Origin: Nitrospirota bacterium
GTDB taxonomy: Bacteria > Nitrospirota > Thermodesulfovibrionia > Thermodesulfovibrionales > UBA9159
NCBI GenBank assembly: GCA_021790195.1
Contig: JAJYIF010000007.1
Location: 24,192 to 88,191, forward strand
Direction of reading: 5' to 3'
Length of the DNA: 64,000 nt
A model generated the notes under the pieces. It saw only the letters and a program-made list of their open reading frames with translations. It was not told where the DNA came from and searched no databases. The position numbers and the translations under genes are program-made. This document shows positions 1 to 58,865 of the stretch, piece after piece (position 1 is the stretch's first letter; every line of letters begins with the position of its first letter).

Positions 1-685
1 TCAGGTCTGCTCCTCCGCCGTGGATATCGAAGCTCTCGCCGAGGTGCTTCATGGTCATGGCAGAGCATTCGATATGCCAACCCGGCCTTCCCGGGCCCCA
101 GGGACTTTCCCATGACGGCTCTCCTTCCTTCGAAGACTTCCAGAGTGCGAAGTCCATGGGGCTCCTCTTCCTCTCGTCCACCTCGACGCGCGCCCCGGCG
201 AGCATGTCCTCGACATCTCTTTTCGAGAGCTTCCCGTAGTCGCCGAACTTCTTCACTTCAAAATAGACGTCGCCGTCGAGAACGTAGGCGTAGCCTTTTT
301 CGACGAGGCCGCGGACTATAGCTATTATCTCGGTTATGTGCTCTGTCGCCTTCGGCTCGACGTCCGCCCTCCCCACCCCGAGCCTGTCCATGTCAGCGTA
401 ATACTCATCAGTATATTTCTTTGCGACCTCGTCCCAGCGGACACCTTCCTGCCTGGCCCTGTTGATGATCTTGTCGTCGATATCGGTAAAGTTCCTGACA
501 TATTTCACGTCGAGTCCTCTGAACCGCAGATATTTCCTCATGACATCGAAAACAATGGCGCTCCTGGCATGTCCGATATGGCAAACATCGTAAACCGTGA
601 CCCCGCAGGCGTACATCCCTATCTTTCCAGGGACAAGGGGGACAATATCTTCCTTTTTGCCCGTCAGTGTGTTATAGACCCTCAT
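1..685 (-). CDS. cysS: cysteine--tRNA ligase, N-terminal ~228 codons (3' end lies beyond window start)
   Basis: The ORF leaves the window, so it is absent from the supplied track. Minus-strand translation from ATG 685..683 reads [42 protein letters not shown]...[14 protein letters not shown]...[16 protein letters not shown]...[10 protein letters not shown]. This is colinear with E. coli CysRS (HIGH region, [12 protein letters not shown]). AAGGAGG lies 5 nt upstream of the ATG. Confidence 0.93.
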
Positions 686-1333
686 TACGCCTCCTTTACC
701 CTCAATCTTCTCAATCCTCTTTTCGAGCTCGGCAACGTATTTTTCCATCTCCCTGAATTTCTCTTCGACAGGGTCCTGCATATAGACACGGGCCATGCTT
801 TCCTCCGGCCCTCCCTCCGTCATCCTCGTGATCCTCTTTTTTATGACTTTCCCCGGTACGCCTACGACTATGGCGTGGTCCGGAACAGGGTCGAGCACCA
901 CTGCATTGGCGCCTATCTTAGCATAATCGCCGACAGAAATAGCGCCGAGTATCTTGGCGCCTGTCCCGACCACGACATTATTGCCGAGAGTCGGGTGTCG
1001 CTTACCCTTTTCTTTTCCGGTCCCGCCGAGCGTGACGCCTTGATAGAGCAGACAGTTCTCCCCTATCTCGGTCGTCTCCCCTATCACCACCCCCATGCCG
1101 TGGTCGATGAAGAAACCCGGACCGATCTTTGCGGCCGGGTGGATCTCTATGCCGGTGAGAAACCTCGCCACATGGGATAGAAGGCGGGGTATGACCGGAA
1201 TCCCGGCATCCCAGATAAGATGGTTGATCCTGTGAAAGAAGATCGCATGGAAGCCCGGATAGGCGAGGACAACCTCGAACCCGTTCCTGGCGGCCGGGTC
1301 GTTCATAAATACCGCTTGGTAATCACGCTTCAT
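686..1333 (-). CDS. cysE: serine O-acetyltransferase with charged helical C-terminal tail; no stop codon before cysS ATG (in-frame)
   Basis: Minus-strand translation reads [41 protein letters not shown]...[46 protein letters not shown]...[10 protein letters not shown]. That is the short-type CysE N-terminus plus the hexapeptide-repeat core. An alternative ATG is at 1351 ([10 protein letters not shown]...). The frame was checked codon by codon from 883 to 683. Confidence 0.88.
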
Positions 1334-1617: not shown

Positions 1618-3405
1618 ATGAAAAAAATGCGTTTTTTGTTACTTGCCCCATTAGTCCTAGTTTTGACATTCGCCGGGTATCTTGAGGCCGGGGTTACAGG
1701 GGTTCCCGACCATGTTCCGGCGGCGACGGTAATCGTGCCCTATTTCGAGGTGGGGATCAATAGTACAGTCGACTGCAACGACACATTGCCTATTGTCAGG
1801 AATACCGGTTCGTCGCCTGTGACTGTTCACTATCAGGTGTGGGATGAATTCGGAAATGCACTTCCGGATCTGAGCGGCAATTTTAGTCTCGGCCCGCAGG
1901 CGACGAAGACTATCACTATCAGGTATCTTATCGTTAACGCGTCTGCCGCTTCGCTGAACGAGATGACGGACGGCGCTTTCTACAGGGGCTTCATGACGTT
2001 CGACGTAGTTACTTCTTCAACCTCTTTGACTCCTAAAGCGGCCGGTTATCCTTTCGGAAACGATAATGTCCTGGAGGGGCTGGTATATTACACAAGATTG
2101 TGCCAGGGCTCTTCAAACGGGCTGCCCATGATTTCCATAGAAGCGACTCCTTCATCTTCGATGTCGGGATTTTATCAGACCTCCGACAACAGGGAGAGGA
2201 TTGATGCGGATGCCCGTTACTCCGCGGAACAGGGCGCCTTAATGCCGGCCCCGGGTAACGCCATAGGCGAAGTGGATGCCAGGGTATTTCTTGACCCTAA
2301 CAACAACGGTACCAGCAAGGTAGTCGTATTTACTTTTCCCCGGGGAGGCTACTGCGTGAGTTGCGGCCCGGGACAAATCGCCTATAAACATTATGACGAA
2401 AGTGGGAATCTTGTGGAAGATACCTCCGTCAATCTCGACCGCATAGTAAACGTCATTAATGTAACCGGCACGCAAAACGGCGACATCTCTCTCCGGAACA
2501 TCCCGGGGGGCTGGGAGACTTTTGCCTTTTCCACGAATTCTGCAAGCCCCGGATTTAATCCTGCCCTCACCTGGGATGCCATTTTTGAGGCGTCCGTTAA
2601 GGTGGCTGCCGGCGGGACCATCAGCGGCATGGCGGTTAAGGGGCCTGTGGCGGGAGCGACGGTGACGGCGTTTGCCGTAAGCAACGGCGTTGTGGGCGGC
2701 CAGATAGGAACCGGGCAGACAGACGGACAGGGTAATTTCTCAATCCCGGTCGGCAATTATGCCGGTCCCGTTTTGCTGCAGATGAAGGGCGGGACTTACA
2801 CGGACGAAGCGACCAGTGTTGTGATGTCGATGCAACCGGGCGACATGATGACGGCCGTTATCCCTTCTATATCTTCCGGTGATGCGGTGGGCGGAATCCG
2901 GATGACCCCGCTGACTTCAATGGCCCAGACGATGGCGCAGGGAATGCCGGGTGGAATGACTCCTGCAAATATCGCCACGGCTAACACCTCGGTCGGCAAT
3001 TACTTCGTGGTAAGCGACATCCTGCACGTCGCTCCGATGGACCCTTTGGTCACGGGATCCGGCAACAGCGCAGACCAGAATATGAGGAATTACGGAATGG
3101 CTATCGCCGCTATGTCACAGTATGCAAGCAGCATAGGGCTGCAGTATTCTTCGGCTATAGTAACCGCAATGATGAATGACGCTTCGGACGGACTTATGAA
3201 TGGTATGATGGGCGGCTCACCGGTGCAGATGGGAAGCGGCGGCATGATGGGCGGCAGCATGATGTCCTCCAGCGCGGGCACAAGCGGACTGGCAAATGCC
3301 ATGACGCAATTCATGAACTCGCAGATGAACAGATCCGGCCTGACCGTTCAGGAAATGCAGACGCTGATCAATAAACTCATGACCTCTAACGGAGTGATCC
3401 AATAG
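1618..3405 (+). CDS. secreted protein: unknown N-terminal domain, carboxypeptidase-regulatory-like beta-sandwich, Met/Gly-rich C-terminal tail
   Basis: GGAGG lies before the ATG and the signal peptide is MKKMRFLLLAPLVLVLTFAGYLEAG. The segment ISGMAVKGPVAGATVTAFAV...GQTDGQGNFSIPVGNYAGPVLLQMKGGTY resembles CarboxypepD_reg-type domains. The tail contains runs such as MMNDASDGLMNGMMGGSPVQMGSGGMMGGSMM. Confidence 0.8.
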   Translation: MKKMRFLLLAPLVLVLTFAGYLEAGVTGVPDHVPAATVIVPYFEVGINSTVDCNDTLPIVRNTGSSPVTVHYQVWDEFGNALPDLSGNFSLGPQATKTITIRYLIVNASAASLNEMTDGAFYRGFMTFDVVTSSTSLTPKAAGYPFGNDNVLEGLVYYTRLCQGSSNGLPMISIEATPSSSMSGFYQTSDNRERIDADARYSAEQGALMPAPGNAIGEVDARVFLDPNNNGTSKVVVFTFPRGGYCVSCGPGQIAYKHYDESGNLVEDTSVNLDRIVNVINVTGTQNGDISLRNIPGGWETFAFSTNSASPGFNPALTWDAIFEASVKVAAGGTISGMAVKGPVAGATVTAFAVSNGVVGGQIGTGQTDGQGNFSIPVGNYAGPVLLQMKGGTYTDEATSVVMSMQPGDMMTAVIPSISSGDAVGGIRMTPLTSMAQTMAQGMPGGMTPANIATANTSVGNYFVVSDILHVAPMDPLVTGSGNSADQNMRNYGMAIAAMSQYASSIGLQYSSAIVTAMMNDASDGLMNGMMGGSPVQMGSGGMMGGSMMSSSAGTSGLANAMTQFMNSQMNRSGLTVQEMQTLINKLMTSNGVIQ

Positions 3406-10343: not shown

Positions 10344-11327
10344 TCAACTGCTTATCTCACCGTCAACATTCGGGGCGCACCTGCCATAAACCTCGTCCAG
10401 GATCTCTTTCGCACCCCTCGAAAGGACGTCCTCAGCCAGCGTTGTGCCGAGTGCTTCGGGATTCCCTCTATCGCCCTCAATATGTCCTTTTATGATCCTG
10501 TCTCCCGATATGCTCCCGACAAGCCCGTCCATGACGATCCTGCCGCCCGACAACCGGGCATAAGCGGCGATAGGCACCTGACAGCCGCCCTCGAGCTTTT
10601 TCAGAAAGGCCCTCTCGGCCCTGACGCAAACCGAAGTATCCTCATGGTTAAGAGATGCGACAAGGTCGTTTATGAACGGGTCCCCGACCCTGCATTCAAT
10701 CCCGATAGCGCCCTGTCCTATTGCCGGAAGGCTTACCTCCGCCGGCATGATCTCGGTTATCCTGTTCGCCCATCCGAGTCTCTTTACGCCGGCCGCCGCC
10801 AGGATTATCGCACCGAACTGGCCTTCGTCCAGCTTTCTCAATCTCGTATCGAGATTCCCTCTCAGTTGCGCTATCCTCAGGTCAGGCCTGATGTTGAGGA
10901 GTTGTGTCGAGCGCCTTAGACTGCTCGTCCCCACAGTCGAGCCCTGGGGGAGACTTCCGAAATTCTGAATTTTGAATTTTCCATTTTGCATCTGAGATAT
11001 AAAAGCGTCCCTCGGGTCTTCCCTCTTGCATATTACCGGCAGATGAAGCCCCTCGGGAAACTCCGTAGGCACGTCCTTCATGCTGTGGACAGCAAGGTCG
11101 GCAGCGCCGCTAAGCATGGCCTCTTCTATCTCTTTCACAAAAAGGCCCTTGCCCCCGACCTTTGCAAGGGGAACATCCAGTATCTTGTCACCTGTAGTCT
11201 TTATTTTGTTCAATTCGACTTCCGCCCCGGGCAGGAGCTTCTGCAACTCCGACTTCACCCATTCCGCCTGCCAGAGCGCAAGTTTGCTGCCGCGTGTGCC
11301 TATAATGACCTTATTTCTCTTCTTCAT
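10344..11327 (-). CDS. hemC: hydroxymethylbilane synthase (porphobilinogen deaminase)
   Basis: VIIGTRGSKLALWQAEWV...HSMKDVPTEFPEGL...GNLDTRLRKLDEG...EGGCQVPIAAYA. Confidence 0.93.
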   Translation of the reverse strand: MKKRNKVIIGTRGSKLALWQAEWVKSELQKLLPGAEVELNKIKTTGDKILDVPLAKVGGKGLFVKEIEEAMLSGAADLAVHSMKDVPTEFPEGLHLPVICKREDPRDAFISQMQNGKFKIQNFGSLPQGSTVGTSSLRRSTQLLNIRPDLRIAQLRGNLDTRLRKLDEGQFGAIILAAAGVKRLGWANRITEIMPAEVSLPAIGQGAIGIECRVGDPFINDLVASLNHEDTSVCVRAERAFLKKLEGGCQVPIAAYARLSGGRIVMDGLVGSISGDRIIKGHIEGDRGNPEALGTTLAEDVLSRGAKEILDEVYGRCAPNVDGEISS

Positions 11328-12585
11328 CTCCGTTTATCCCATAAAGTTTCTTGATCATTGCGACAAGTACGTCCTTGTCTTCCGCGTCCTCTCTGAGGGC
11401 GACCGTCGGCGGGTGAATCAGTTTATTGGTTATAGCTGATGCCATATATTCGATCGCCTTCTTCTCCTTCTCTCCCAGCCCCGGGAACTTGTTGATGAGC
11501 TTTTCCAGTTCCTCTTTCTTTATCAGCTCTGCCTTGTTCCTGAGGGCCACCACGGTAGGCACCGAGCTGAGAGAGGACATCCATCTCCTGAAAGATTCGA
11601 TCTCTTCCCCGATTATAGTCTCGGCCTTTTCGGCCTCCTTCTGACGCTCCGATATATTCGCGTCCACGACTCCCTGCAGATCGTCCACGTCATAAAGGTA
11701 TACATTGTCGAGGTCGTTTGTCTCCGGATCGATGTTCCTAGGCACCGATATGTCGATAATGAATACCGGCTTCTGCTTGCGCTCCCTCATCACCTTCTGC
11801 ATCTCCTCTTTTCGAAGCACGTAGGCGGGCGCGCCCGTGGAGCATATGATAATGTCCGTATGGACCGCCTCGTGAAGGAAGTCCTCAAACTTGACCGCCC
11901 TTCCGTTCAGCTCCTTTGCGAGCTCGCATCCCCTCTCGAATGTCCTGTTGACCACGACCACTTTCGTCACGCCGAAGTTCATCATATGCTTTGCAGCGAG
12001 TTCGGCCATCTCACCCGCGCCGAGGAGCATAAAGGATTTTTCCGGGAGGTCGGTGAATATCTTCCTCGCAAGTTCCAGGGCCGCGAAACTGATCGAAACC
12101 GCATTCTCCGCTATCCGGGTCTCGGTCCTCACCCTCTTTGCAACGGAGATGGTCTTCTTCATCAACCTGTTGAGCAGGATACCTGTTGTCTTCTTTTCGA
12201 GAGCGAACTCGAAAGCGTCCTTGAGCTGACCCAATATCTGCGGCTCGCCGACAACCATGGAGTCGAGGCTCGAACCGACCCTGAAGACGTGTCTGACCGC
12301 ATCCAGGTTCCTGTAGAGGTAAAGCGATTTTTCGAGGGCGGCGCTCTTTAAGCCGTGGAACTCCGAAAGGAAGGCCTTTACCTGATCGAATGCTGTCTCA
12401 GGCTCCTTTACGTTTAAGTAAATCTCAACCCTGTTACATGTCGAGAGGATTATCGCCTCCTCAACGCCCGGCAGACCGCCGAGTTTGAGCAAACCCTCGC
12501 TGAGCTTCTCTCCGTTGAAGGCAAGCCTCTCTCTCACCTCCACATCCGCAGTCTTATGGTTCAAACCGACGACGAGGATATTCAT
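11311..12585 (-). CDS. hemA: glutamyl-tRNA reductase
   Basis: MNILVVGLNHKTADVEVRERLAF...ILSTCNRVEIY...LLGAGEMAEL. It overlaps hemC by 17 nt. Confidence 0.93.
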   Translation of the reverse strand: MNILVVGLNHKTADVEVRERLAFNGEKLSEGLLKLGGLPGVEEAIILSTCNRVEIYLNVKEPETAFDQVKAFLSEFHGLKSAALEKSLYLYRNLDAVRHVFRVGSSLDSMVVGEPQILGQLKDAFEFALEKKTTGILLNRLMKKTISVAKRVRTETRIAENAVSISFAALELARKIFTDLPEKSFMLLGAGEMAELAAKHMMNFGVTKVVVVNRTFERGCELAKELNGRAVKFEDFLHEAVHTDIIICSTGAPAYVLRKEEMQKVMRERKQKPVFIIDISVPRNIDPETNDLDNVYLYDVDDLQGVVDANISERQKEAEKAETIIGEEIESFRRWMSSLSSVPTVVALRNKAELIKKEELEKLINKFPGLGEKEKKAIEYMASAITNKLIHPPTVALREDAEDKDVLVAMIKKLYGINGDEEEK

Positions 12586-13406
12586 ACAAAAGCATGAAGC
12601 CCTTTTAAGAGGAGATTAACACCGAAGAAAGTGAAGATCACACTGAGGAAGCCCACAATGGAGAGTATGGCGGCCTTTCTCCCCCGCCAACCCGCGGTCA
12701 GGCGGGCATGAAGCACGAGGGCATAGATGAACCATGTGATCAGCGACCACACCTCTTTCGGGTCCCATCTCCAGTAGCTTCCCCACGCGCTCTCGGCCCA
12801 GAGGGCGCCGGTTATGATAGCGAGAGTGAGCAGCGGGAAGCCGAGAGTGATGAGCCTGTAATTGATTTCATCCAGGATCTGGAGATTGGGAAGCCTGTCG
12901 AACAATCCCCCGAGGCGCTTGGACTTCAGGTGATGCTCCTGGATGAGGTACATTATGCCGATTCCGAAAGCGGTCGCGAAGGCGGCGTCTCCGAGAAAAG
13001 CCAGGAATGTGTGTATGCCAAGCCAGTAGCTCTGAAGCACCGGGCTCAGCGGCTTTATCTCTCTCGGCAGAATAGAGGACGAAAGCATAAGCACGAACAC
13101 TATCGGCATTGTGAAAGGACCGAGGAGGTCGATCCTGTAGCGGTATTCGAGGAAAAAGAAGATTACGACTATGCACCACGCAAAAAAAGACGAGGCCTCG
13201 TGGAGACTCGTAATGGGGAGATGCCCCGAAACCGTATACCTCACCACGATCGTCGCGGAATGCAGGACAAAGCCGGCAACGGCAAAGACGAGAACAAAAT
13301 TGGACGTCTTCTTTGTGCCTTTGAAGAGCTCCACGATGCCCACGATGGCGGCCGCGAAATAGAACGTCAGGCTGAGTTCAAAAAGAAGCACACTCATCAG
13401 AAACAA
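12582..13406 (-). CDS. cytochrome c assembly protein, CcsA/HemX family
   Basis: Polytopic membrane protein with the Trp-rich motif WAESAWGSYWRWDPKEVWSLITW. It overlaps the hemA start by 4 nt. Confidence 0.8.
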   Translation of the reverse strand: MFLMSVLLFELSLTFYFAAAIVGIVELFKGTKKTSNFVLVFAVAGFVLHSATIVVRYTVSGHLPITSLHEASSFFAWCIVVIFFFLEYRYRIDLLGPFTMPIVFVLMLSSSILPREIKPLSPVLQSYWLGIHTFLAFLGDAAFATAFGIGIMYLIQEHHLKSKRLGGLFDRLPNLQILDEINYRLITLGFPLLTLAIITGALWAESAWGSYWRWDPKEVWSLITWFIYALVLHARLTAGWRGRKAAILSIVGFLSVIFTFFGVNLLLKGLHAFV

Positions 13407-14092
13407 CCAAGCTCGCAGTCCGTGATCTTGATGTCGAGCTCATCAGCGATCTTGCCGACTTCCCTGAATCTGACATCCAGCTCCTCGGCGATCTTTCTGG
13501 CAACGGGACACGGGATCTTACCGTGAACGGATTTCTTCTTCAATAATGACCTAATCTGTTCCTTAGCTTCGACCATTTCCTCTATGTATTCAAGAAAGGC
13601 CTTGTAATCGCTCTCGGACCTCCCTAAAACCTTGGCCCCTTTCGGCAGCTCCAGGGGGATCTCTCCTTCGAGAACTACCACATCGGCTTTATGGAGAATA
13701 TCTCTCGCGTCAGCCTTGATATTTCGCGCATCGCCTCCAAATATAAATATTATAATATCGGGACTTAAAAACTCAATTGCACTATTGCCTTCAACAACGA
13801 TACCTTTAAGATCCGAGAGCCTCTCGACAGCCATCGGAAGGACGTCCCCGAGATCGGACGGCGGGGACTGCACCCACATGACGCGCTCCGCCCCGGAGTC
13901 GATCATCCTCCTCGTGTCCTTGCCCTCCTCCATCAGGGTCTCCGGGTCGTCCACAAGGGAGCAATACAGCCCGGTCTTAGTACATTTTATTGCGCCCCAT
14001 TCTGGAAAGCGCCGGAGGATGAGGGATGCATAAACCGTCTTTCCGGCACCGCTATGCGCGCCGGCAACACCTATGATGATGGGTCTCGTCAT
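13397..14092 (-). CDS. P-loop NTPase (MobB/BioD-like) with small Cys-containing C-terminal domain
   Basis: The P-loop reads IIIGVAGAHSGAGKTV, with VVEGNSAIEF downstream. The C-terminal 45 aa read KIPCPVARKIAEELDVRFREVGKIADELDIKITDCELGCF. It overlaps the ccsA-like gene by 10 nt. Confidence 0.55.
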   Translation of the reverse strand: MTRPIIIGVAGAHSGAGKTVYASLILRRFPEWGAIKCTKTGLYCSLVDDPETLMEEGKDTRRMIDSGAERVMWVQSPPSDLGDVLPMAVERLSDLKGIVVEGNSAIEFLSPDIIIFIFGGDARNIKADARDILHKADVVVLEGEIPLELPKGAKVLGRSESDYKAFLEYIEEMVEAKEQIRSLLKKKSVHGKIPCPVARKIAEELDVRFREVGKIADELDIKITDCELGCF

Positions 14093-23950: not shown

Positions 23951-24106
23951 ATGGGCATCCTTAAGAAGGCATTTTCCGCAACGAGCTCTGTGATAAGGCT
24001 TCTCTTAGGAGCGGGCGCGCTCCTGACCGTAGTGATCGGCATTAAGAATAAAAGGATTGAGAATCCTGCATATAAAGATAGAAGAAAAGAGGGGACAGAC
24101 CGCTAA
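23951..24106 (+). CDS. possible 51-aa single-TM protein downstream of feoB
   Basis: MGILKKAFSATSSVIRLLLGAGALLTVVIGIKNKRIENPAYKDRRKEGTDR. The position resembles small FeoB-associated membrane proteins, but it has no Cys. Confidence 0.3.
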   Translation: MGILKKAFSATSSVIRLLLGAGALLTVVIGIKNKRIENPAYKDRRKEGTDR

Positions 24107-24927
24107 GGCTGCTTCTTCTTCCCTGCCGTAAATTTCCTCGAAGATGCCTCGTCTATGATCTTTATAAGCTTGTCCGCATCAGTGTATCCAGAATAGATCG
24201 AGCCGTCCGGCAATATCAGGGTAGGGGTCCCGGTTATACCGTCCTTTTCGCCAAGTTTCAGATTATTGTCGATCTCTTTTGTAGCGCACTCTTTCCGGGG
24301 AATCGGTTTCTTCTCGAAGTTATCCTCAAGAAGTTCCAGCGATTTACTGCACACAATGCTCTTGGATTTCCAGTATGCGTCAGGATGGATCTTCAGCGGG
24401 AATAATTTCAGGTAAAAAACAATGTCCTTCCTCTGTGCCAGAACCTTCTTCATCTCCTGATGAAGTCTCGCGCAGAACGGTCATTCGGGGTCGGTGAAAA
24501 CAATTACCTTTATGGGGGCCGTCTTGTTGCCGAGCACAAGGGCGTCTTTGAGAGGGATGCTTGCGGGATTGATCCTCCTGTCCTTGTTAAGTTCATCCAG
24601 CCGCTCTTTCGTCTTGTTGATCGCGGCATTCACTTCGACGACAGAACCGGAGAGAAGATATTTCTTCGAGAAGTCCACATAAAAAAGTCCCCTCTGCCCT
24701 TTGTCCTCGACGTCCACTTCCCACAGCCCCTTGATCGGACTCATCTGGATCTTTAATATCTTCGCGTCCTGGGCCTTCATCTTGTCGAGTATATGACGCA
24801 CTTCCTCCCGGCTCAGGCTGTGGCACTTATAGCAATCGGTCTCGCATCCGCTGAACGCAAAAGCAACTACCGGCTTCAGCGCCAGCCAAATCACAATAAG
24901 ACATGCCGGGACCATGTATTTTTTCAT
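24103..24927 (-). CDS. DsbC/DsbG-like thiol:disulfide interchange protein, predicted selenoprotein (UGA at 24483..24481 read as Sec)
   Basis: Track ORFs 24481..24945 and 24103..24453 share one frame and are separated by a single TGA. The joined sequence ...VIVFTDPE-U-PFCARLHQEMKKVL... aligns with E. coli DsbC VFTDITCGYCHKLHEQM. The cis-Pro loop GITGTPTLILPDG is present. The likely start is ATG 24927 (MKKYMVPACL...), since the track start at 24945 is TTG. Confidence 0.8.
24448..24465 (-). promoter_or_regulatory. candidate bacterial SECIS hairpin
   Basis: The mRNA reads UGA-CCGUUCUGCGCGAGA-CUUCAUC-AGGA-GAUGAAG. This is a 7-bp stem with a G-containing tetraloop, and the loop is about 22 nt from the UGA. 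Confidence 0.55.
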
Positions 24928-25021
24928 ATTGTCTCTCACGACCAATTATTATAACACAGAGACCCAGGAAACTTGGCAATGCAGCGCATTAGCAGAAAGT
25001 ATTGAATTGCATCTTCAGGAC

Positions 25022-27202: not shown

Positions 27203-27961
27203 TCATGCAGTCAGCTGCATCTTTGCGTCGAGGACCATAAGACCTTCAGGAAAGAGGGCCACCGGGTTCAGGTCGATCTCGCCGACCAGGCCCGTTGCCA
27301 TCATATCGGAAACAATGACTAACGCCCTTATCAGCGCCTCTTTATCTATCGGGGGCTTTCCCCTGTAACCTTCCAGGAGCAGGCTGCCCCTGGTCTCACG
27401 GACGAGCCGCCTGGCGCCTTCCGGATCCATCGGCGCAAGGCCGAAGGCCACATCCTTGAACAATTCGACAAATACCCCTCCCAGGCCGAACATCATGACG
27501 GGACCGAACTGGGGGTCGATTATTCCACCGATAATAACTTCGATCCCTTCCGGGGCCATCTCCTCCACGAGAACTCCTTCCGCTCCCGGAACGCCTGATA
27601 ACTCCTGAACAGCCGTTTTCAATTCATCCCCGTCCCTTATGCCGGTCCTCACCCCGCCCACGTTGCTCTTTGAAGTAATTCTCAGAGAGGAAATCTTCGC
27701 GACAAGGGGAAACCTGAGGTCCACTTTGACCGGGATGACTTCACCGGTTCCGAACAACCTCCCATTCGGCACGGATAATCCGATCCCTCTCAAGAGATTC
27801 TTTACCTCGTGCTCGGCAAAGACAGTCCTCCCTCTCTTTGCCTCTGCAAAATCCCTGATAAGTTTCGAGACTTTGCCGTCGGTTCCGGAAAAATGTGGAT
27901 CGGCCGGGACAGTCATAGAATATCTTTTCCTTTCTGTATTAAGTATATCCTGTTGCCGCAT
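27203..27961 (-). CDS. ATP-grasp domain protein resembling the beta part of ADP-forming acetyl-CoA synthetase
   Basis: AEHEVKNLLRGIGLSVPNG...FPLVAKISSLRITSKSNVGGVRTGI...GVLVEEMAPEGIEVIIGGIIDPQFGPVMMFGLGGVFVE...EIDLNPV. The true start may be the internal M at 27916. Confidence 0.65.
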   Translation of the reverse strand: MRQQDILNTERKRYSMTVPADPHFSGTDGKVSKLIRDFAEAKRGRTVFAEHEVKNLLRGIGLSVPNGRLFGTGEVIPVKVDLRFPLVAKISSLRITSKSNVGGVRTGIRDGDELKTAVQELSGVPGAEGVLVEEMAPEGIEVIIGGIIDPQFGPVMMFGLGGVFVELFKDVAFGLAPMDPEGARRLVRETRGSLLLEGYRGKPPIDKEALIRALVIVSDMMATGLVGEIDLNPVALFPEGLMVLDAKMQLTA

Positions 27962-28014: not shown

Positions 28015-29640
28015 ATGGAAATACAGCCCAACATGAAAGATTACAAGAATGAGTACCGGAGCTTTTCTTTGGATGCGCCTGAAAGATTTTCTTTTCCTCT
28101 CGATGTCTTCGACAAGTGGGGTGAGAGGACGGCCCTCTTCTGGACTGACGGCGCCGTTGAAATCAAATACACTTTCACTCAGCTTAAGACCCTTTCCTCG
28201 AAGGGCTCCGCGGCCCTTGGGAAAATAGGAATCAAGACGGGGCATAAAGTCCTTGTGATGCTCCCGGCTGTTCCTGAATGGTGGGAGTTGATGCTCGCAC
28301 TGATGAGACTGAACGCAATCGCAATCCCCGCAACAACGCTCTTGAAATCCAAGGACATCGAATACAGGCTCTCGGCCACGGATGTGAAGGCCGTCATAGC
28401 GATGGACGAAGCAGCCCCGATGGTGGAAGAAGCGATAAACGCCTCTTCCTCAAACGCGATCTTGATAGCAGTCGGGGAAAGACAGGGGTGGCTCAACTAC
28501 AGAGAGGAGCGAGAGAGGGCCGATGCCTTTGAAGGCGAAAGGGACTTTTCGAACGAGCCGGCCCTTATATATTTCACGTCCGGCACGACCGGGCAGCCCA
28601 AAATGGTTGTGCACACCCATGCGTCATATCCTCTTGCACACCTCCTGACGGGAAGATATTGGCTCGATCTCAGGCCCGGAGATATGCACTGGAACCTCTC
28701 GGACACAGGCTGGGCAAAGGCCGCGTGGTCGAGCTTATTTGGCCCGTGGCACATGGGGGCCACCATATTCTCATTTTACAGGAAAGGGAAATTCGACCCT
28801 TCAATGACATTGGAGGTCATGCAGAAATATCCCATTACCACTTTCTGCGGGCCTCCCACTGCTTACAGGATGATAGTAAAAGAGCACGCCTTTTCATTGA
28901 GACGCGGGATATGGTCTATGCGCCATTTTGTCGCGGCCGGAGAGCCCCTTAATAGCGAGATAATAGAAATCTGGAAAGACAGGACAGGCATGTACATCCT
29001 TGATGGCTACGGTCAGACAGAGACCGTAAATGTCCTGGCCAATTTCAGGTGTCTTCCTGTAAGGCCGGGCTCGATGGGGATGCCTGTTCCTGGATTTGAG
29101 GTGGATGTTATCGACGAAAACGGCGAGACCAACTCGGCTGGGACAGAGGGAGATATTGCTATAAGGACAAAGCCGGAGAGACCCATGGGATTGTTCAAGG
29201 AATACCTCGGAAACCCAGGGGCGACAGCCGACACCGTAAGGAAAGATTGGTACATAACGGGCGACAGGGCATTCAGGGACGAGGACGGATATTTCTGGTT
29301 TGTAGGAAGGGCGGATGACGTTATCCTGACCTCGGGGTACAGGATCGGGCCATTCGAGATTGAAAGTATCCTCATCGAACACCCGGCAGTAAAAGAGACG
29401 GCTGTGGTCGCGAGTCCCGATGAGGTGAGAGGCGAGGTAGTCAAGGCCTTCGTGGTCCTCACGCGCGATCATGACCCGTCGGAGGCACTGATGAAAGAAC
29501 TTCAGGAGTTTGTGAAGCAGCGGACCGCGCCGTACAAATATCCCCGCAAGATCGAATTTGTCGATGACCTTCCAAAGACAGTCAGCGGAAAGATAAAGAG
29601 GAAAGAGCTGAAGATGAGGGAGTTCGGGAAATCTCAGTAA
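28015..29640 (+). CDS. AMP-forming acyl-CoA synthetase (medium-chain/acetyl-CoA synthetase-like)
   Basis: The AMP-binding signature reads LIYFTSGTTGQPKMVVHTH. Also present are GYGQTE, YITGDRAFRDEDGYFWFVGRADD and PKTVSGKIKR. Confidence 0.88.
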   Translation: MEIQPNMKDYKNEYRSFSLDAPERFSFPLDVFDKWGERTALFWTDGAVEIKYTFTQLKTLSSKGSAALGKIGIKTGHKVLVMLPAVPEWWELMLALMRLNAIAIPATTLLKSKDIEYRLSATDVKAVIAMDEAAPMVEEAINASSSNAILIAVGERQGWLNYREERERADAFEGERDFSNEPALIYFTSGTTGQPKMVVHTHASYPLAHLLTGRYWLDLRPGDMHWNLSDTGWAKAAWSSLFGPWHMGATIFSFYRKGKFDPSMTLEVMQKYPITTFCGPPTAYRMIVKEHAFSLRRGIWSMRHFVAAGEPLNSEIIEIWKDRTGMYILDGYGQTETVNVLANFRCLPVRPGSMGMPVPGFEVDVIDENGETNSAGTEGDIAIRTKPERPMGLFKEYLGNPGATADTVRKDWYITGDRAFRDEDGYFWFVGRADDVILTSGYRIGPFEIESILIEHPAVKETAVVASPDEVRGEVVKAFVVLTRDHDPSEALMKELQEFVKQRTAPYKYPRKIEFVDDLPKTVSGKIKRKELKMREFGKSQ

Positions 29641-29936: not shown

Positions 29937-30497
29937 ATGGAGGTGCGTGTTGTCATGAGAAGGATGCGGATCAGCAAAGCATTCACGCTGATGGAACCAG
30001 GACCCGTAGTTCTCGTTACGACAAATGACGGGGAGAAGGACAACATAATGACCATCTCCTGGACCATGGTGATAGACTTTACGCCGCTATTTGCCATGAC
30101 CACCGGGCCCTGGAACTATTCCTATGCTGCGCTTCGGAAATCCAGAGAATGCGTAATTTCGATTCCCACCGTTGACCTGATTGATCAGGTCGTCGGCGTG
30201 GGAACATGTTCAGGAGCCGACACAGATAAGTTCAGAAAGTTCGGGCTGACTCCTGTGAAGGGGCGGCATGTAAGGGCGCCCTTAATCAAGGAATGCCTGG
30301 CGAATATCGAATGTAGAGTGATCGACATCATTAGAAGACACAATATCGTTGTGCTCGAGGGCATTGCTGCGTACTTTGATAGTTCACGGAAAGAAAAGCG
30401 CACCATTCATGCAATTGGCGATGGCACTTTCGTAGTTGATGGACGCAGGCTGAATCGAAGAATAATGATGCGGTCGAAGATTCCAGATGGTGTTTGA
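29937..30497 (+). CDS. flavin reductase-like (FMN-binding split barrel) protein
   Basis: MEPGPVVLVTTNDGEKDNIMTISWTMVIDFTPLFAMTTGPWNYSYAALRKSRECVISIP...DKFRKFGLTP. Confidence 0.75.
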   Translation: MEVRVVMRRMRISKAFTLMEPGPVVLVTTNDGEKDNIMTISWTMVIDFTPLFAMTTGPWNYSYAALRKSRECVISIPTVDLIDQVVGVGTCSGADTDKFRKFGLTPVKGRHVRAPLIKECLANIECRVIDIIRRHNIVVLEGIAAYFDSSRKEKRTIHAIGDGTFVVDGRRLNRRIMMRSKIPDGV

Positions 30498-50879: not shown

Positions 50880-51605
50880 CTAGGCTCTTCTCTCTCTCCG
50901 GAGGTAGTAAATAGCCCCGAGTCCCGCAAGCACCATAAACATTATCATTCCCCATTCCGTCATAGTGGGCACGGATGCGGGAGGTGACCCACCGTAAGTA
51001 TGGTTATCAATAATTACACTAAAAGAGTAAGCTGAACCTGTAAAGATAACCTTGACGATACCTCCTGGATCTTGATAACCAAAAAAAACAGGGCTCGGAC
51101 CATTAACACTAATTGGCGAGGAAGTAAAGATTAAACCACCAGGTCCGTAGACTTTGGCTGTCACAGAATCAGGAAATCCAGAAAACGCTTCCAAATCTAT
51201 ACCCATGGCTATCACCGGTGAAGTGTAGTCTATTTCTAGTATTTGTGATGGACCGCATAGAATAGTCTTGGTATTCAGTCCGAAATAATTATTCCCATTC
51301 CACTGAATAAAAGAACCTGTAAAGACGTAGGTAGCACCAGAGTGTACCAAGCCTGGGCCTTGACCGTTTACAAGAGTAGTACTACCTAATGAGCCAACAG
51401 AGGTATCAACGCTCGAACTGCCGTCTGCAACATTATAAGATTCGAAATCGTCTGTGGTGCCTCCTCCAGATAGTAGCGTGTTGAGTGTTGTACGGTCTGG
51501 AATAACCGCTGCAATGCCATCCGCTACAAAAATGGCAAAGGTTATCAAAATAATTATTCCAAAGCATCCAGACAGTTTGATAATATGTCTGATTAAACCT
51601 GTCAT
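50880..51605 (-). CDS. secreted protein with IPTL-CTERM-type C-terminal sorting signal
   Basis: The C-terminus VPTMTEWGMIMFMVLAGLGAIYYLRRERRA matches the remembered IPTL-CTERM pattern (IPTLSEWGMI..TM..basic tail). It has an N-terminal TM/signal segment, GGAGG before the ATG, and visibly low G+C. Confidence 0.7.
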   Translation of the reverse strand: MTGLIRHIIKLSGCFGIIILITFAIFVADGIAAVIPDRTTLNTLLSGGGTTDDFESYNVADGSSSVDTSVGSLGSTTLVNGQGPGLVHSGATYVFTGSFIQWNGNNYFGLNTKTILCGPSQILEIDYTSPVIAMGIDLEAFSGFPDSVTAKVYGPGGLIFTSSPISVNGPSPVFFGYQDPGGIVKVIFTGSAYSFSVIIDNHTYGGSPPASVPTMTEWGMIMFMVLAGLGAIYYLRRERRA

Positions 51606-54841: not shown

Positions 54842-54855
54842 GTGTGTGTGTGTGT
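54842..54855. repeat. (GT)7 dinucleotide microsatellite in the 5' UTR
   Basis: GTGTGTGTGTGTGT lies 34 nt upstream of ATG 54889. Confidence 0.9.
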
Positions 54856-54888
54856 TTACTGACTAAGAAAGAACGAAAGGGAGGAAGA

Positions 54889-55986
54889 ATGAAAAAGAGA
54901 CTGTTTGTTGTACTGATTCTGGCGGCGGCCTTGGTGGGCTATATGGCATTCACAGGGTCCGTCGGTTACGGAAAAGAGTCCGGAGAAGGGCACGCGGTAG
55001 TTGCAAAGGTCGAATTGTCCAAGAAACCCATTACCTTTGACGGTATAGCTTATATAGCAGGACACGGCGGCCACATAGCTATCATCGACATGAGGACGAT
55101 GAAGTCGCCGACGGACGTGGAAAAAGACAGGATCGTTATCACCGAGGCCGGCTCCGAGATGGAGGGCAAGATAGCAGGTATGAGCTTTGAAAAGGTCCAG
55201 AAGGCCGGCGGAATGCACGGTCAGGCGCTTATAAAAGAGCACGGCGACAAGGTCCTCGTTGTGGGCACACTTGACGGCGATGTCTACAAGGTCGATCTCA
55301 AGACAGGTAAGAAGACCGGGCCCTGGAAGGTCGGCGAAAAGTTCTGCGGCGCCATTGTCGGTCCTGACGGAAAGATATACTTTGAAGACATGGCCGATGG
55401 TAACGTTTACGTCTGGGATTCAAAGACGCTGAAGACTGCGGACAAGATGCCGGTTGGAAAGGCCGTTTGCGGCATACAGTGGACCAAGAACGCGAAGAAG
55501 GCGTACATCACCGACATGCCTACCGGCATTGTGTATGTGTATGACTGGAAGACAAAGAAGAAGATCAAGGAGATCAAGAGCCCTGAGATGACGTTCATCC
55601 ATCAGGACAGAATGACACCCGACGGCAGGTACCTCTGGGTCAGCGCGCCGAACGAGTTCGATCCGGGCCTGAAGCCGGGCACCCACAAGAGCCAGGTCAT
55701 CATCATCGACACAAACACGGACAAGATAGTGAAACGGATAATCCTTCCGGACAACATAAGGCCGCACGATTTTGCGTTCACAGCTGACGGCAAGTACGCC
55801 CTGCTTTCATCCAGGACATACGGCGATGACAGCAAGCTCGTTGTCCTCGACAGAAAGAATGACCACATCGTGGAAGAGGTTTCGGCTTGTAAATCATGCC
55901 ACCAGCCGAACGGCATAGAAGTGAAGATGGACAAGGGTTCACCGCTTCTCTGCGGCATCACGGTTGACTGGCACCCCGGCAAGTAA
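54889..55986 (+). CDS. secreted YVTN-type beta-propeller protein with C-terminal CxxCH motif
   Basis: GGGAGG lies before ATG 54889, and the track start at 54844 lies within the GT repeat. The signal peptide is MKKRLFVVLILAAALVGYMAF. Blade-like repeats include DGNVYVWDSKT, GIVYVYDWKT, SQVIIIDTNT and KLVVLDRKN. CKSCH is encoded at 55888..55902. Confidence 0.75.
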   Translation: MKKRLFVVLILAAALVGYMAFTGSVGYGKESGEGHAVVAKVELSKKPITFDGIAYIAGHGGHIAIIDMRTMKSPTDVEKDRIVITEAGSEMEGKIAGMSFEKVQKAGGMHGQALIKEHGDKVLVVGTLDGDVYKVDLKTGKKTGPWKVGEKFCGAIVGPDGKIYFEDMADGNVYVWDSKTLKTADKMPVGKAVCGIQWTKNAKKAYITDMPTGIVYVYDWKTKKKIKEIKSPEMTFIHQDRMTPDGRYLWVSAPNEFDPGLKPGTHKSQVIIIDTNTDKIVKRIILPDNIRPHDFAFTADGKYALLSSRTYGDDSKLVVLDRKNDHIVEEVSACKSCHQPNGIEVKMDKGSPLLCGITVDWHPGK

Positions 55987-56050: not shown

Positions 56051-56142
56051 GACCCTGTTCGCAGAGGCCCGCAAAACAAGCGCTTTATTCATTGAGGCGG
56101 CAAGTCACGAATGCGAATGATAATGTTATAATAAGAAAGTTT

Positions 56143-57351
56143 ATGGCGTCAAAACTGAACATCATACTGTTTGCGATAAAGAACCTCCGCAGAAAAATGA
56201 CCCGCACCTTCCTGCTCCTCCTTGCGGTCACCGTGGTGACAGGCACACTCTTTTCGGCGACCCTCTTTATCTCCAGCATGCAGAACGCGCTTAAGATCGG
56301 CACTTACCGCCTTGGGGCTGACGTGCTTGTCGTGCCGTCGAAGTACGAGTCCGAGGCCCGCGCTGCGCTGCTTGCGGGCGAGCCCACGAGCTTTTACATG
56401 GACCGCTCGGTCCTCGACAAGGTGAGGGCGGTCGAAGGAGTCAAGAGAGCGTCCCCGCAGCTCTTCATAAAACCGACCTCGTTTACATGCTGTTTCAGCG
56501 TCGAGGCCTTTCTTGTGGCCTTCGATCCGGCTACGGACTTCACTATCACCCCGTGGCTTGAGAGGAACCTTAAGAAGCCGCTTGTCGGCAACCAGGTCAT
56601 AACCGGGAGGAACATACCCGTGATCGTCGGAGATACCATGCCTTTCTTCGGCACCCCCTTTAAAGTCGTAGGCACAATGGAGCCGACAGGCATGAAATTT
56701 TTCGACCAGTCCGTGTTCATGACCATGGATGCGGCCTATCAGATGGCCGAGAACTCCAAGACCAGGGCCATACAGCCGATTACCATAGAGAGAGACAAGA
56801 TCTCGGCCGTGCTCGTCCAGGTCCAGGAAGGTTTTTCTCCCGACAGGGCCGCCATCCGCATAGAGCACGATATTGACGGCGTCAAGGCGATAGCCTCTGA
56901 CGAAGTCATCAGCACGGTAAGGAAACAACTTGGAGGACTTCTGAAGGGGATCCTCGCGATCAGCGCCGTGTTGTGGGTTTTGGCGCTTTTGATGATGGGC
57001 TTCGCCTTCTCGATGATCGTAAACGAGCGTCAGAGGGAACTCGGCCTCCTGAGGTCCATGGGCGCCAGGAAGAGTCATGTATTCAAGCTTATAGTGACTG
57101 AGGCTGTCATCATCTCTTTGATGGGCGGGCTCGTCGGCCTGATATCAGGCTCGGCCCTCCTTGTCACGTTCAAGAACCTTATCCTTCACAGCCTTAAACT
57201 GCCCTACCTCTTGCCGCCGGTTTCGACTCTCATCGAGCTGGTCTTAGGCGCAGTGATATTCTCGATGCTGACCGGCCTCCTCGCTTCGCTCCTGCCGGCC
57301 ATATCTGCAAGCAGAATGGAGCCGTACGAGGCCATCAGAAAGGGGGAGTAG
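56143..57351 (+). CDS. ABC transporter permease, FtsX/MacB/LolE type
   Basis: The likely start is ATG 56143 (MASKLNIILFAIKNLRRKMTRTF...). TM1 is followed by a large periplasmic domain, then three TM helices (FtsX domain: NERQRELGLLRSMGARKSHV). The periplasmic domain contains an adjacent CC pair (TSFTCCFS). Confidence 0.85.
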   Translation: MASKLNIILFAIKNLRRKMTRTFLLLLAVTVVTGTLFSATLFISSMQNALKIGTYRLGADVLVVPSKYESEARAALLAGEPTSFYMDRSVLDKVRAVEGVKRASPQLFIKPTSFTCCFSVEAFLVAFDPATDFTITPWLERNLKKPLVGNQVITGRNIPVIVGDTMPFFGTPFKVVGTMEPTGMKFFDQSVFMTMDAAYQMAENSKTRAIQPITIERDKISAVLVQVQEGFSPDRAAIRIEHDIDGVKAIASDEVISTVRKQLGGLLKGILAISAVLWVLALLMMGFAFSMIVNERQRELGLLRSMGARKSHVFKLIVTEAVIISLMGGLVGLISGSALLVTFKNLILHSLKLPYLLPPVSTLIELVLGAVIFSMLTGLLASLLPAISASRMEPYEAIRKGE

Positions 57352-57354
57352 ATC

Positions 57355-57792
57355 ATGATGCCAAGATCCGCCATGCTGCGTGTCTCCGTTTTTTTGTGTT
57401 CTTTGATGTTTGTGTTTCTTTTGCCTGTTTCCTCATATTCCCAGCCCTTCCCTATTCCCAAAGACACGCTTTGCGCGGAATGCGGGATGACGGTTAACCC
57501 GGATTCGAAGTTCTCTGCCGAGGTGATAACAACAGACGGGAAGAAGATGTTCTTTTGCGATATAGGGGACATGCTCCGTCACTTCAGATCGGACAGGGGA
57601 AAACTGAAAATAGTCTACGTAAAAGATTATAAGAGCGGCGCCTGGATTGAGGGTGCAAAGGCGTATTATGTTTTTGACAAGAGGTTCTCGACCCCGATGT
57701 CATGGAGCATTGCAGCCTTCCGGGAGGAGTCGGAGGCAAGGAAGTGGGGCAATCCCGTCGACTTCAAGGGGGCCTACGGACTGTTGAAATGA
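57355..57792 (+). CDS. nosL: NosL-family (copper-chaperone-like) protein
   Basis: A signal peptide is followed by DTLCAECGMTVNPDSKFSAEVITTDGKKMFFCDIGDMLRHF, the NosL pattern CxxCGM...FCD.G. Confidence 0.75.
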   Translation: MMPRSAMLRVSVFLCSLMFVFLLPVSSYSQPFPIPKDTLCAECGMTVNPDSKFSAEVITTDGKKMFFCDIGDMLRHFRSDRGKLKIVYVKDYKSGAWIEGAKAYYVFDKRFSTPMSWSIAAFREESEARKWGNPVDFKGAYGLLK

Positions 57793-58190
57793 TTATAAGC
57801 AGGAAGTTCGGGATAATGCTCTTCTTGATGGGACTTCTGGTATTGCTCACCCCGCGATACATACTGCCGACTTGCGAGTTTGAGGGCTATAGCAGGATGG
57901 CCTGCACTTATACCGGCACGGCGGAGATGTTTATAGGGGCCATCGTCATGATAGCGGCGGTGGGAATGATCCTGTCCAGGACCTACGAGGCCCTGAGGTG
58001 GTCGGGCCTCACTACTCTGGCTGCGGGCATAGCCGTGGTTTTTGTGCCTGATGCCATCGGATACTGCCACAACAGCCAGCACCCCTGCAATTACGGCACG
58101 GTCCCCATGCTCCGGCTGCTGGGGGCATTGATAATTCTTCTTTCTATAGCGGGTTTTATCATATCTCTTAAAGGAGAAAAAAGCAGATGA
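57789..58190 (+). CDS. 133-aa four-TM membrane protein with Cys/His-rich external loops (DUF4418-like)
   Basis: ATGA overlap with the nosL stop. Loop 1 reads PTCEFEGYSRMACTYTG and loop 3 reads GYCHNSQHPCNYG. Size and topology recall DUF4418, but this is not verifiable without an HMM. Confidence 0.6.
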   Translation: MIISRKFGIMLFLMGLLVLLTPRYILPTCEFEGYSRMACTYTGTAEMFIGAIVMIAAVGMILSRTYEALRWSGLTTLAAGIAVVFVPDAIGYCHNSQHPCNYGTVPMLRLLGALIILLSIAGFIISLKGEKSR

Positions 58191-58828
58191 AGAACCATAT
58201 TAGCTTTGCCGGAAAATTGCTGCTTGTGGCAGTGCTTCTTTTTGTCCTCTTGCCTGTTGTTTCCTGCAAGAAAGAACAGCCCCGCGAGGAGCAGAGAGCG
58301 GAGGCGCCTACCGTCAACCCATACTCCAGCGAGTCCGTCTACGGAGAAATAAAGAAGAGACTGGACGAGAACCCCAATGACGTGGATGCCCTTTACCATC
58401 TTGCAGATCTTTATTACCGCGACGCGCAGTACCCCGAGGCGATTGAGACGCTGAAGAAAGTCGTCAAACTGAAACCCGACATGGGATACGCCTACCTCAA
58501 GATGGGGACCGCTTATGATCGTCTCAATAAGCCTAAAGAGGCGATAGAAACCTTGAGGAAGGCTGCGAAGCACATGCCCAAGTATGCGGTAGTCTACAAC
58601 AACCTTGGGGTGGCTTACGGCAATAGCGGCAATCTCAATGAAGAGATAGGCGCCCTGAAAAAAGCGATAGAACTGAGACCGAACTACACGTCGGCCAGAT
58701 TTAATCTTGCGATAACCTACTCCAAGAAAGGAAACAAGAAGGCCGCGGAACAGCAATATGAGGCCCTGAAGAAATTCGACGAGGGCGCGGCCGAGGCCCT
58801 CAGGAAAGAGCTCGATAAGACTTCCTGA
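58187..58828 (+). CDS. TPR-repeat lipoprotein
   Basis: ATGA overlap with the preceding gene. The lipobox is LLPVVSC, and about 4 TPR units follow (ALYHLADLYYRDAQYPEAIETLKKVVKLKPD...). Confidence 0.8.
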   Translation: MKNHISFAGKLLLVAVLLFVLLPVVSCKKEQPREEQRAEAPTVNPYSSESVYGEIKKRLDENPNDVDALYHLADLYYRDAQYPEAIETLKKVVKLKPDMGYAYLKMGTAYDRLNKPKEAIETLRKAAKHMPKYAVVYNNLGVAYGNSGNLNEEIGALKKAIELRPNYTSARFNLAITYSKKGNKKAAEQQYEALKKFDEGAAEALRKELDKTS

Positions 58829-58865
58829 TGACGCCAGGCTTACATTTACAGGACCCGGAGGACAG

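Follow-up and report, generated by a model that had tools for sequence, protein, structure and literature searches.

The 64,000-nucleotide stretch analyzed here (the window; contig JAJYIF010000007.1 of a Nitrospirota bacterium, positions 24,192 to 88,191) carries on its minus strand a gene, interrupted by an in-frame TGA, that very probably encodes one periplasmic isomerase/reductase of the DsbC family in which selenocysteine (Sec, U) replaces the nucleophilic active-site cysteine (Cys), giving U-P-F-C. The frame runs on through the TGA into a thioredoxin-fold domain, the TGA corresponds to the first Cys of the CxxC motif of homologous proteins, and both the TGA and the frame downstream of it are conserved in more than 40 species. 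An RNA hairpin just past the TGA is retained in the TGA-containing genes and has decayed in nearly all of their Cys-encoding relatives.

A single gene interrupted by one TGA

Positions 24927..24103 of the minus strand form one open frame of 274 codons, the sole interruption of which is the TGA at 24483..24481. The initial annotation had described two minus-strand open reading frames (ORFs; 24481..24945 and 24103..24453) that share a frame and are separated by this TGA alone, and the sequence and its translation agree. Its claim that the gene is split by ORF calling is literally true of the public record GCA_027425855.1 (DAIBUU010000007.1, ~47.8-48.7 kb), in which the gene is listed as two products, one of 148 aa (DsbC_N) and one of 116 aa (Thioredoxin_2). 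Of the span proposed at that time, 24103-24945, the single read-through gene stands; the start codon is more probably the ATG at 24927, where the public call of 148 aa begins, than the TTG at 24945. Between the TGA and the next ATG, 27 nt are open and code for PFCARLHQE. The read-through product consists of MKKYMVPACLIVIWLALKPVVAFA followed by FSGCETDCYKCHSL...IKVIVFTDPE-U-PFCARLHQEMKKVL...GITGTPTLILPDG.... Its predicted signal peptide has no twin-arginine motif, and an N-terminal helix spans residues 4-24 in the model of a 74%-identical homologue. The following features were assigned to the gene and its product.

24103..24927, minus strand: complete predicted selenoprotein gene, with ATG at 24927, Sec-UGA at codon 149, and stop TAG at 24105..24103 (translation, Pfam, and homologues)
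24856..24927, minus strand: predicted signal peptide of the Sec (secretory) type, MKKYMVPACLIVIWLALKPVVAFA, read from the sequence, with probable cleavage after AFA
24628..24804, minus strand: DsbC_N dimerization domain, residues 42-100 (PF10411, E = 1.1e-8, 35 bits against a cutoff of 25)
24157..24513, minus strand: thioredoxin-fold catalytic domain, residues 139-257 (PF13098 Thioredoxin_2, E = 3e-19; PDB DsbC chains, E down to 1e-16)
24481..24483, minus strand: in-frame UGA, codon 149, proposed Sec, where homologues have the nucleophilic first Cys of CxxC
24472..24483, minus strand: active-site motif U-P-F-C (C-P-[FY]-C in homologues)
24286..24351, minus strand: second Cys pair, in the helical insert (C193 at 24351..24349 and C214 at 24288..24286, both invariant)
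24223..24228, minus strand: cis-Pro loop Thr234-Pro235 (GITGTPTLILPDG), with T234 and P235 invariant and aligned to G-T-P of the Yersinia and Neisseria DsbC structures

The product belongs to the DsbC family

For the Pfam assignments, U was entered as C in the product. The search for homologues yielded more than 1,000, led by 270-285-aa “DsbC family” proteins with up to 74% identity over their full length, from Nitrospirota, Thermodesulfovibrionales, and Dissulfurispiraceae metagenome-assembled genomes (MAGs). In 27/27 aligned homologues, the first Cys of C-P-[FY]-C stands at the TGA column, and CxxC is present at the equivalent site in 234 of the 237 homologues retrieved; seven homologues without CP[FY]C have CSFC, CAFC, CHFC, or CQFC instead, and none of the 237 contains a U or X residue. 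When searched with phmmer against PDB chains, the segment “...vftdpeCpfcarlhqemk...” pairs with the Yersinia DsbC active site, VFTDITCGYCRKLHEQMK, and C193 and C214 both align with Cys residues of DsbC chain 4npb. We take the latter pair to be the counterpart of the structural disulfide that joins Cys141 and Cys163 in the E. coli protein. For P0001, the 74%-identical homologue, the AlphaFold model (mean predicted local distance difference test score, 87.8) has its best PDB fold matches in E. coli, Salmonella, and Yersinia DsbC over ~230 columns that span both domains, with DsbG next. Three structural claims made from the sequence at the outset are thereby confirmed: a DsbC-like architecture with the dimerization domain in the upstream half (Pfam and the homologue model), a TGA placed on the nucleophilic first Cys of CxxC (the homologue and PDB DsbC alignments), and a cis-Pro loop in the downstream half, to which the PDB alignment adds the second Cys pair.

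The NCBIfam equivalog model of DsbC (NF008129) gives 72.5 bits, far under its cutoff of 215; thus, the protein is a member of the DsbC family and not an equivalog of E. coli DsbC. The DsbG equivalog model matches weakly and in part (37.7 bits against a cutoff of 124). With the DsbCs of E. coli, Salmonella, and Yersinia (PDB 1EEJ, 4I5Q, and 4NPB), the window protein shares the dimerization domain and the thioredoxin domain with its helical insert, and with enterobacterial DsbC (VFTDITCGYC.KLHEQM) it further shares the active-site position (VFTD..CxxC..LH.EM), the G-T-P of the cis-Pro loop, the second Cys pair, and a signal peptide. It differs from the solved DsbCs, to which it is ~23-26% identical, in the predicted Sec in place of the nucleophilic Cys, in the dipeptide P-F rather than G-Y, and in an extra N-terminal C-x3-C-x2-C-H segment (see below).

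The TGA and the downstream frame are conserved

A collection of genomes was scanned with the pattern TTYACNGAYCCNGANTGACCNTWYTGY, which demands TGA at the active-site codon. Forty species-representative genomes matched, where ~0.54 chance matches are expected, and 40/40 matches lie in frame inside DsbC-family genes with 111-125 conserved residues after the TGA. The carriers of these genes (here, Sec forms) are mostly MAGs of Thermodesulfovibrionales/Nitrospirota, among them “Candidatus Sulfobium”; a second group is labeled delta proteobacterium or Thermodesulfobacteriota, and its nearest homologues with a Cys codon (Cys forms) are labeled Syntrophaceae. A metagenome scan in which TGA, TGC, and TGT were all allowed returned at least 8 TGA and at least 113 Cys codons, in a much broader set of DsbC relatives. 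Orthologues, the active-site codon of which the initial annotation proposed to compare (TGA or TGC/TGT), show both states: TGA in 40 genomes and Cys codons in others.

The median pairwise ratio of nonsynonymous to synonymous substitution rates is 0.13 for the first 25 codons after the TGA and 0.17 for codons 14-25, against 0.17 upstream. Because the downstream values are equal to or below the upstream value, the region after the TGA is under purifying selection as coding sequence in the same frame. The window locus has relA/spoT upstream and a convergent feoB downstream, a neighborhood shared by the closest Sec forms (relA or feoB synteny) and by the closest Cys forms, which indicates that the closest Sec and Cys forms are orthologues differing in Sec versus Cys. 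A rough neighbor-joining tree mixes Sec with Cys forms and requires 14 or more changes by parsimony; this fits the frequent Sec/Cys interconversion that is already known (PMC1794560).

The same observations bear on the view that the TGA marks a pseudogene, or a sequencing or assembly error, in an ordinary Cys-type dsbC gene. The window was taken from a MAG, its close orthologues of the Cys form reach 74% identity, and public gene calling takes the TGA as a stop. Nevertheless, we regard this view as extremely improbable: the TGA recurs at the same codon in 40 species-level genomes and at least 8 metagenomic contigs, followed by an intact and selected frame; the identical 148-aa TGA-terminated product is recorded on five contigs; and a hairpin specific to TGA forms is kept by selection (see below). 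A genetic code in which TGA is a sense codon was considered separately and ruled out. TGA terminates other genes of the window (e.g., at 27203, 48586, 16724, and 7272); therefore, TGA is not generally a sense codon in this organism.

A hairpin downstream of the UGA is specific to Sec forms

Two RNA features were delineated in the coding region that follows the UGA.

24448..24465, minus strand: apical hairpin of a predicted bacterial Sec insertion sequence (SECIS), with 5' arm CUUCAUC (24465..24459), loop AGGA (24458..24455), and 3' arm GAUGAAG (24454..24448)
24431..24477, minus strand: predicted extended stem-loop, with lower stems 24477..24473 / 24435..24431 and inner pairs around the apical hairpin (minimum free energy [MFE] folding)

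The hairpin CUUCAUC-AGGA-GAUGAAG begins exactly 15 nt past the UGA, with a distance of 22 nt between UGA and loop, and its region codes for L-H-Q-E-M-K in the window gene. A 67-nt segment has an MFE of -23.6 kcal/mol (z = -3.7), and 0/200 shuffled sequences were equally stable. The 7-bp stem is complete in 44/44 distinct Sec-form sequences (308/308 cells paired), and the loop is N-G-G-A (N = A, U, or G) with GG invariant. Pair 3 (24463 / 24450) is U-A in 38 Sec forms and C-G in 6 (L017, L022, L033, L039, L088, and L128), with none mixed; C-G occurs in the Syntrophaceae-like deltaproteobacterial clade and, separately, in the Nitrospirota genome L022. The double change is synonymous at Leu (CTT to CTC) and replaces Lys by Glu at its other side (AAG to GAG). 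As the combinations are CTT-AAG (38) or CTC-GAG (6) and never a mixture, a constraint of RNA pairing forces the Lys-to-Glu change.

Since the stem also encodes a conserved peptide, conservation of the hairpin by itself proves little, and the Cys forms are the informative control. Of the Sec forms, 44/44 have a perfect hairpin, against 1/33 Cys forms (Fisher p = 7e-21) and, when only Cys forms with hairpin-compatible residues are considered, 1/6 (p = 2.8e-6 versus the Sec forms). At the relA-dsbC position, none of the seven Cys orthologues retains every pair; the peptide is an identical LHQEMKK in four of them and has I or L for M in three. At the hairpin sites, Cys forms use CTG, CTC, CTA, TTG, or CTT for Leu, CAC for His (9/26), GAA for Glu (11/26), and AAA for Lys (7/26). 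Our analysis thus identifies a hairpin under selection specific to Sec forms.

The one Cys form with a perfect hairpin, L041 (Ga0315312_1010540, ~4165-4191, minus strand), belongs to the Syntrophaceae-like clade, has TGC at the active site, and retains CTCCATCAGGAGATGGAG; this form appears to have switched from Sec to Cys recently and to carry a “fossil” SECIS. In L077, a neighbor of L041, the same hairpin has in part decayed.

The hairpin has a second conceivable function, as the start site of a separate protein. The gene would then yield two real products, a 148-aa protein with DsbC_N alone and a 116-aa thioredoxin-fold fragment from the AUG at 24453, as the public annotation shows them, and AGGAG-AUG in the loop and 3' arm superficially resembles a ribosome-binding site with a start codon. 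However, AGGAG directly abuts the AUG, and a zero spacer is unsuitable for Shine-Dalgarno function; the CTC/GAG covariation also favors base pairing over a Shine-Dalgarno role. The 116-aa product would begin within the first thioredoxin-fold helix and lack the entire CxxC motif, whereas the nine codons between TGA and AUG (PFCARLHQE) are conserved as coding sequence and full-length homologues are all single polypeptides. Two products are therefore very unlikely.

Bacterial SECIS elements have been modeled with a loop of 3-9 nt, an upper stem of 4-16 bp, a UGA-loop distance of 16-37 nt, a G within the first two positions of the loop and G/U after it, and an energy of -7.5 kcal/mol or lower (PMC13188914). 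The geometry of the present hairpin (4-nt loop, 7-bp stem, loop G, 22-nt spacing) falls within this model. As in the bacterial consensus (bSECISearch; E. coli fdhF/fdnG), the stem-loop lies in the coding region just after the UGA; unlike the E. coli fdhF/fdnG elements, to which it bears no sequence resemblance, its conserved part is an 18-nt hairpin. Pairing below the hairpin varies between orthologues, the RNAalifold consensus retains the 7-bp hairpin alone, neither a conserved lower stem nor a bulged U was detected, and the total MFEs of Sec and Cys forms overlap.

Evidence for and against Sec insertion

Several observations weigh against Sec insertion at codon 149. (i) Six of the seven hairpin pairs never vary, so that covariation rests on one pair, and much of the hairpin doubles as code for a conserved peptide (L-H-x-E-M-K). 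(ii) The bare 18-nt hairpin has -6.9 kcal/mol, just short of the published -7.5; the C-G variant has -9.3. With the lower stem of the window sequence, which is not conserved, the energy is -20.7 to -23.6 kcal/mol. (iii) Rfam searched at gathering thresholds over the whole window gave no SECIS and no other credible RNA family, and at permissive E values on 24350..24560 it returned chance eukaryotic matches only. (iv) No selA, selB, selD, or tRNA-Sec was found in the 64-kb window (Pfam on 40 long ORFs; ARAGORN). (v) Insertion of Cys by a selC*-type tRNA-Cys(UCA) is compatible with the sequence, as a minority reading discussed below.

A match in Rfam is not expected, because bacterial SECIS elements are diverse. 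The initial annotation had recognized the position and shape of a bacterial SECIS 15 nt past the UGA, and covariation among the Sec forms together with decay in the Cys orthologues bears it out.

As to the decoding genes, the Pfam scan left aside five long ORFs (27203..27961, 28015..29640, 29937..30497, 59614..60285, and 60633..62393), the first three of which are covered by public gene calls as ATP-grasp_5, AMP-binding, and Flavin_Reduct. ARAGORN detected no tRNA gene of any kind in the window and no tRNA-Sec in 40 related genome loci, in which tRNA-Leu/Phe were the only tRNAs. For the lineage, the literature does lend support to Sec decoding: Thermodesulfovibrio genomes have complete selA/B/C/D (PMC5389517), and a selC overlapping selB is reported for Nitrospirae (PMC13188914).

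A UGA recoded through a SECIS/SelB-type route might also be read as Cys, always or at selenium limitation, by a selC* tRNA-Cys(UCA). Genes for selC* tRNA-Cys occur in Thermodesulfovibrio, Nitrospirae-like contigs, and deltaproteobacteria (Mukai et al., PMC5389517), which are the lineages carrying the present TGA; opal suppression with Cys has been demonstrated in E. coli (PMC5389517), and Cys must be functionally acceptable at codon 149, as most homologues have it. On the other hand, it is Desulfobacterales and Syntrophobacterales for which UCA-anticodon forms with their own SelB*/CysRS* were described, and these were not shown for Thermodesulfovibrionales, and all selC*-bearing genomes also had the complete Sec machinery (PMC5389517). 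For a Cys product, TGC would be the simpler codon, and codon switches from Sec to Cys are frequent in this DsbC family; moreover, the window is devoid of any tRNA gene. We consider Cys insertion improbable and Sec insertion the preferred reading.

The window was also scanned for further split selenoprotein genes, defined as same-frame ORF pairs broken by TGA with at least 60 aa before and at least 40 aa after it. No credible case besides dsbC was found, the others being ordinary gene ends or noncoding frames.

Relation to known selenoproteins

The initial annotation stated that Dsb-like selenoprotein families were already known, and the literature proves it right: in three reports (PMC1088965, PMC1794560, PMC13188914), Dsb/thioredoxin-type selenoproteins with UxxC are predicted, the earliest in 2005. 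Two of the families described there resemble the window protein. (i) A “thiol:disulfide interchange protein” selenoprotein (PF13098, UxxC) is given for Syntrophus aciditrophicus and two Geobacter species (PMC1088965, PMC1794560, PMC13188914). The window protein likewise has PF13098 as its best Pfam family and UxxC at the active site. The published carriers are deltaproteobacteria, whereas the present TGA forms are mostly from Thermodesulfovibrionales/Nitrospirota; for the deltaproteobacterial TGA forms, the nearest Cys homologues are labeled Syntrophaceae, the family of one of the published carriers. The window protein may well belong to this PF13098/UxxC family (representative, WP_011366075.1), with which it is compared by description only. 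(ii) A “DsbG-like” selenoprotein (COG1651, NCBIfam NF041057) is likewise a Dsb-type periplasmic thioredoxin-fold protein with UxxC (PMC1088965, PMC13188914). Membership in NF041057 was rejected, as the window protein shows no match to it at E <= 0.01.

In the literature on PF13098 UxxC selenoproteins, we found no description of the distribution in Thermodesulfovibrionales/Nitrospirota, the relA-linked locus, or the specific hairpin, and a literature search for a DsbC selenoprotein under that name returned nothing specific. The selenoprotein class is known, and the window gene is a well-supported additional member of it.

Proposed mechanism

From the sequence, we propose the following route. 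A ribosome translating the mRNA would reach the UGA at codon 149, where the 7-bp hairpin with its N-G-G-A loop, acting as a bacterial SECIS, would recruit SelB-GTP-Sec-tRNA(Sec), such that Sec is inserted and termination does not occur. The full-length protein would be exported by means of its Sec-type signal peptide and would dimerize via the DsbC_N domain. The U149 selenolate would then attack non-native disulfides of substrate proteins, and the mixed selenenylsulfide could be resolved either by a substrate thiol (isomerization) or by C152 (reduction). Re-reduction of the enzyme may be carried out by a partner of the DsbD/CcdA type; no DsbD/CcdA gene was identified among the Pfam-scanned ORFs of the window. 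Sec is lower in pKa than Cys and superior to it both as nucleophile and as leaving group, which would speed the exchange.

The N-terminal Cys motif

The extra segment at the N terminus comprises one feature.

24820..24846, minus strand: motif C28-x3-C32-x2-C35-H36 (CETDCYKCH), residues 28-36, which contains CxxCH and directly follows the signal peptide

Among 27 aligned homologues, C28 is invariant, and C32, K34, C35, and H36 are at least 90% conserved; the wider consensus is G-C-x3-C-x2-C-H-[ST]-[LI]. CxxCH is present in 119/120 close Cys forms, in 34/38 Sec forms, and in 35/96 diverse metagenomic relatives among the matches listed. The motif is absent from the solved enterobacterial DsbCs and lies in a low-confidence region of the homologue model. 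CxxCH is the attachment signature of heme c.

A cluster on the minus strand (10344..14092) contains hemC (porphobilinogen deaminase, 10344..11327), hemA (glutamyl-tRNA reductase, 11311..12585), and, at 12582..13406, a gene for a cytochrome c assembly protein of the CcsA/ResC type; its fourth ORF, of 231 aa (13397..14092), has no Pfam match. This cluster suggests that the organism matures cytochrome c by System II. The CxxCH signature, the predicted export in an unfolded state, and CcsA-like and heme biosynthesis genes ~10 kb away make a covalent heme one possible reading of the motif; it could also be a metal site or an additional redox dithiol.

Developed further, the heme reading would make the window protein a member of an undescribed DsbC subfamily that is at once a selenoprotein and, via CxxCH, a c-type heme protein. 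We assign this proposal, variants of its role included, a low probability. If it is true, the heme could couple the selenol/thiol active site to the cytochrome pool of the periplasm; alternatively, the enzyme could be specialized for handling the CxxCH sites of apocytochromes in anaerobes rich in cytochromes, replacing the classical DsbD route. As an added part of the proposal, some lineages may also read the same UGA and hairpin as Cys via a selC*-type tRNA. A search of the literature for DsbC proteins with an N-terminal CxxCH returned nothing specific.

One Sec form, L040 (JACQXE010000072.1), has D-C-x2-CH in place of the full motif, and a Cys form, P0035, recorded under the same organism label on a contig of identical length (103,890 bp), has C-x3-C-x2-CH. 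The shared label and length suggest that one genome may hold both a Cys and a Sec paralogue; P0035 does not lie inside the 8-kb L040 locus.

Other genes of the window

Three long ORFs, 338..1180, 1618..3405, and 50880..51605 (280, 595, and 241 aa), have no Pfam family at E <= 1e-5. A gene on the plus strand (54844..55986) encodes a beta-propeller protein that weakly matches the cytochrome D1 heme domain (PF02239, E = 1e-10) and adjoins genes for an FtsX-type permease, a DUF4418 protein, a TPR protein, and an ABC ATPase (56092..59534).

Implications

General knowledge of selenoproteins is unchanged by this finding, the consequences of which lie in annotation and in the evolution of the family. 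At least 40 other species-level genomes share the in-frame TGA that standard gene callers take as a stop, and the 18-nt hairpin together with the FTDP[DE]-U-P[FY]C pattern provides a simple and specific detector of the family. Since an organism of the Thermodesulfovibrionales type is indicated to decode UGA as Sec, other genes of its genome may be miscalled as well. Frequent switching between Sec and Cys at one orthologous, syntenic locus constitutes a natural experiment, in which the SECIS hairpin is selected only together with TGA, decays with TGC/TGT, and has in one lineage imposed Glu in place of Lys on the protein.

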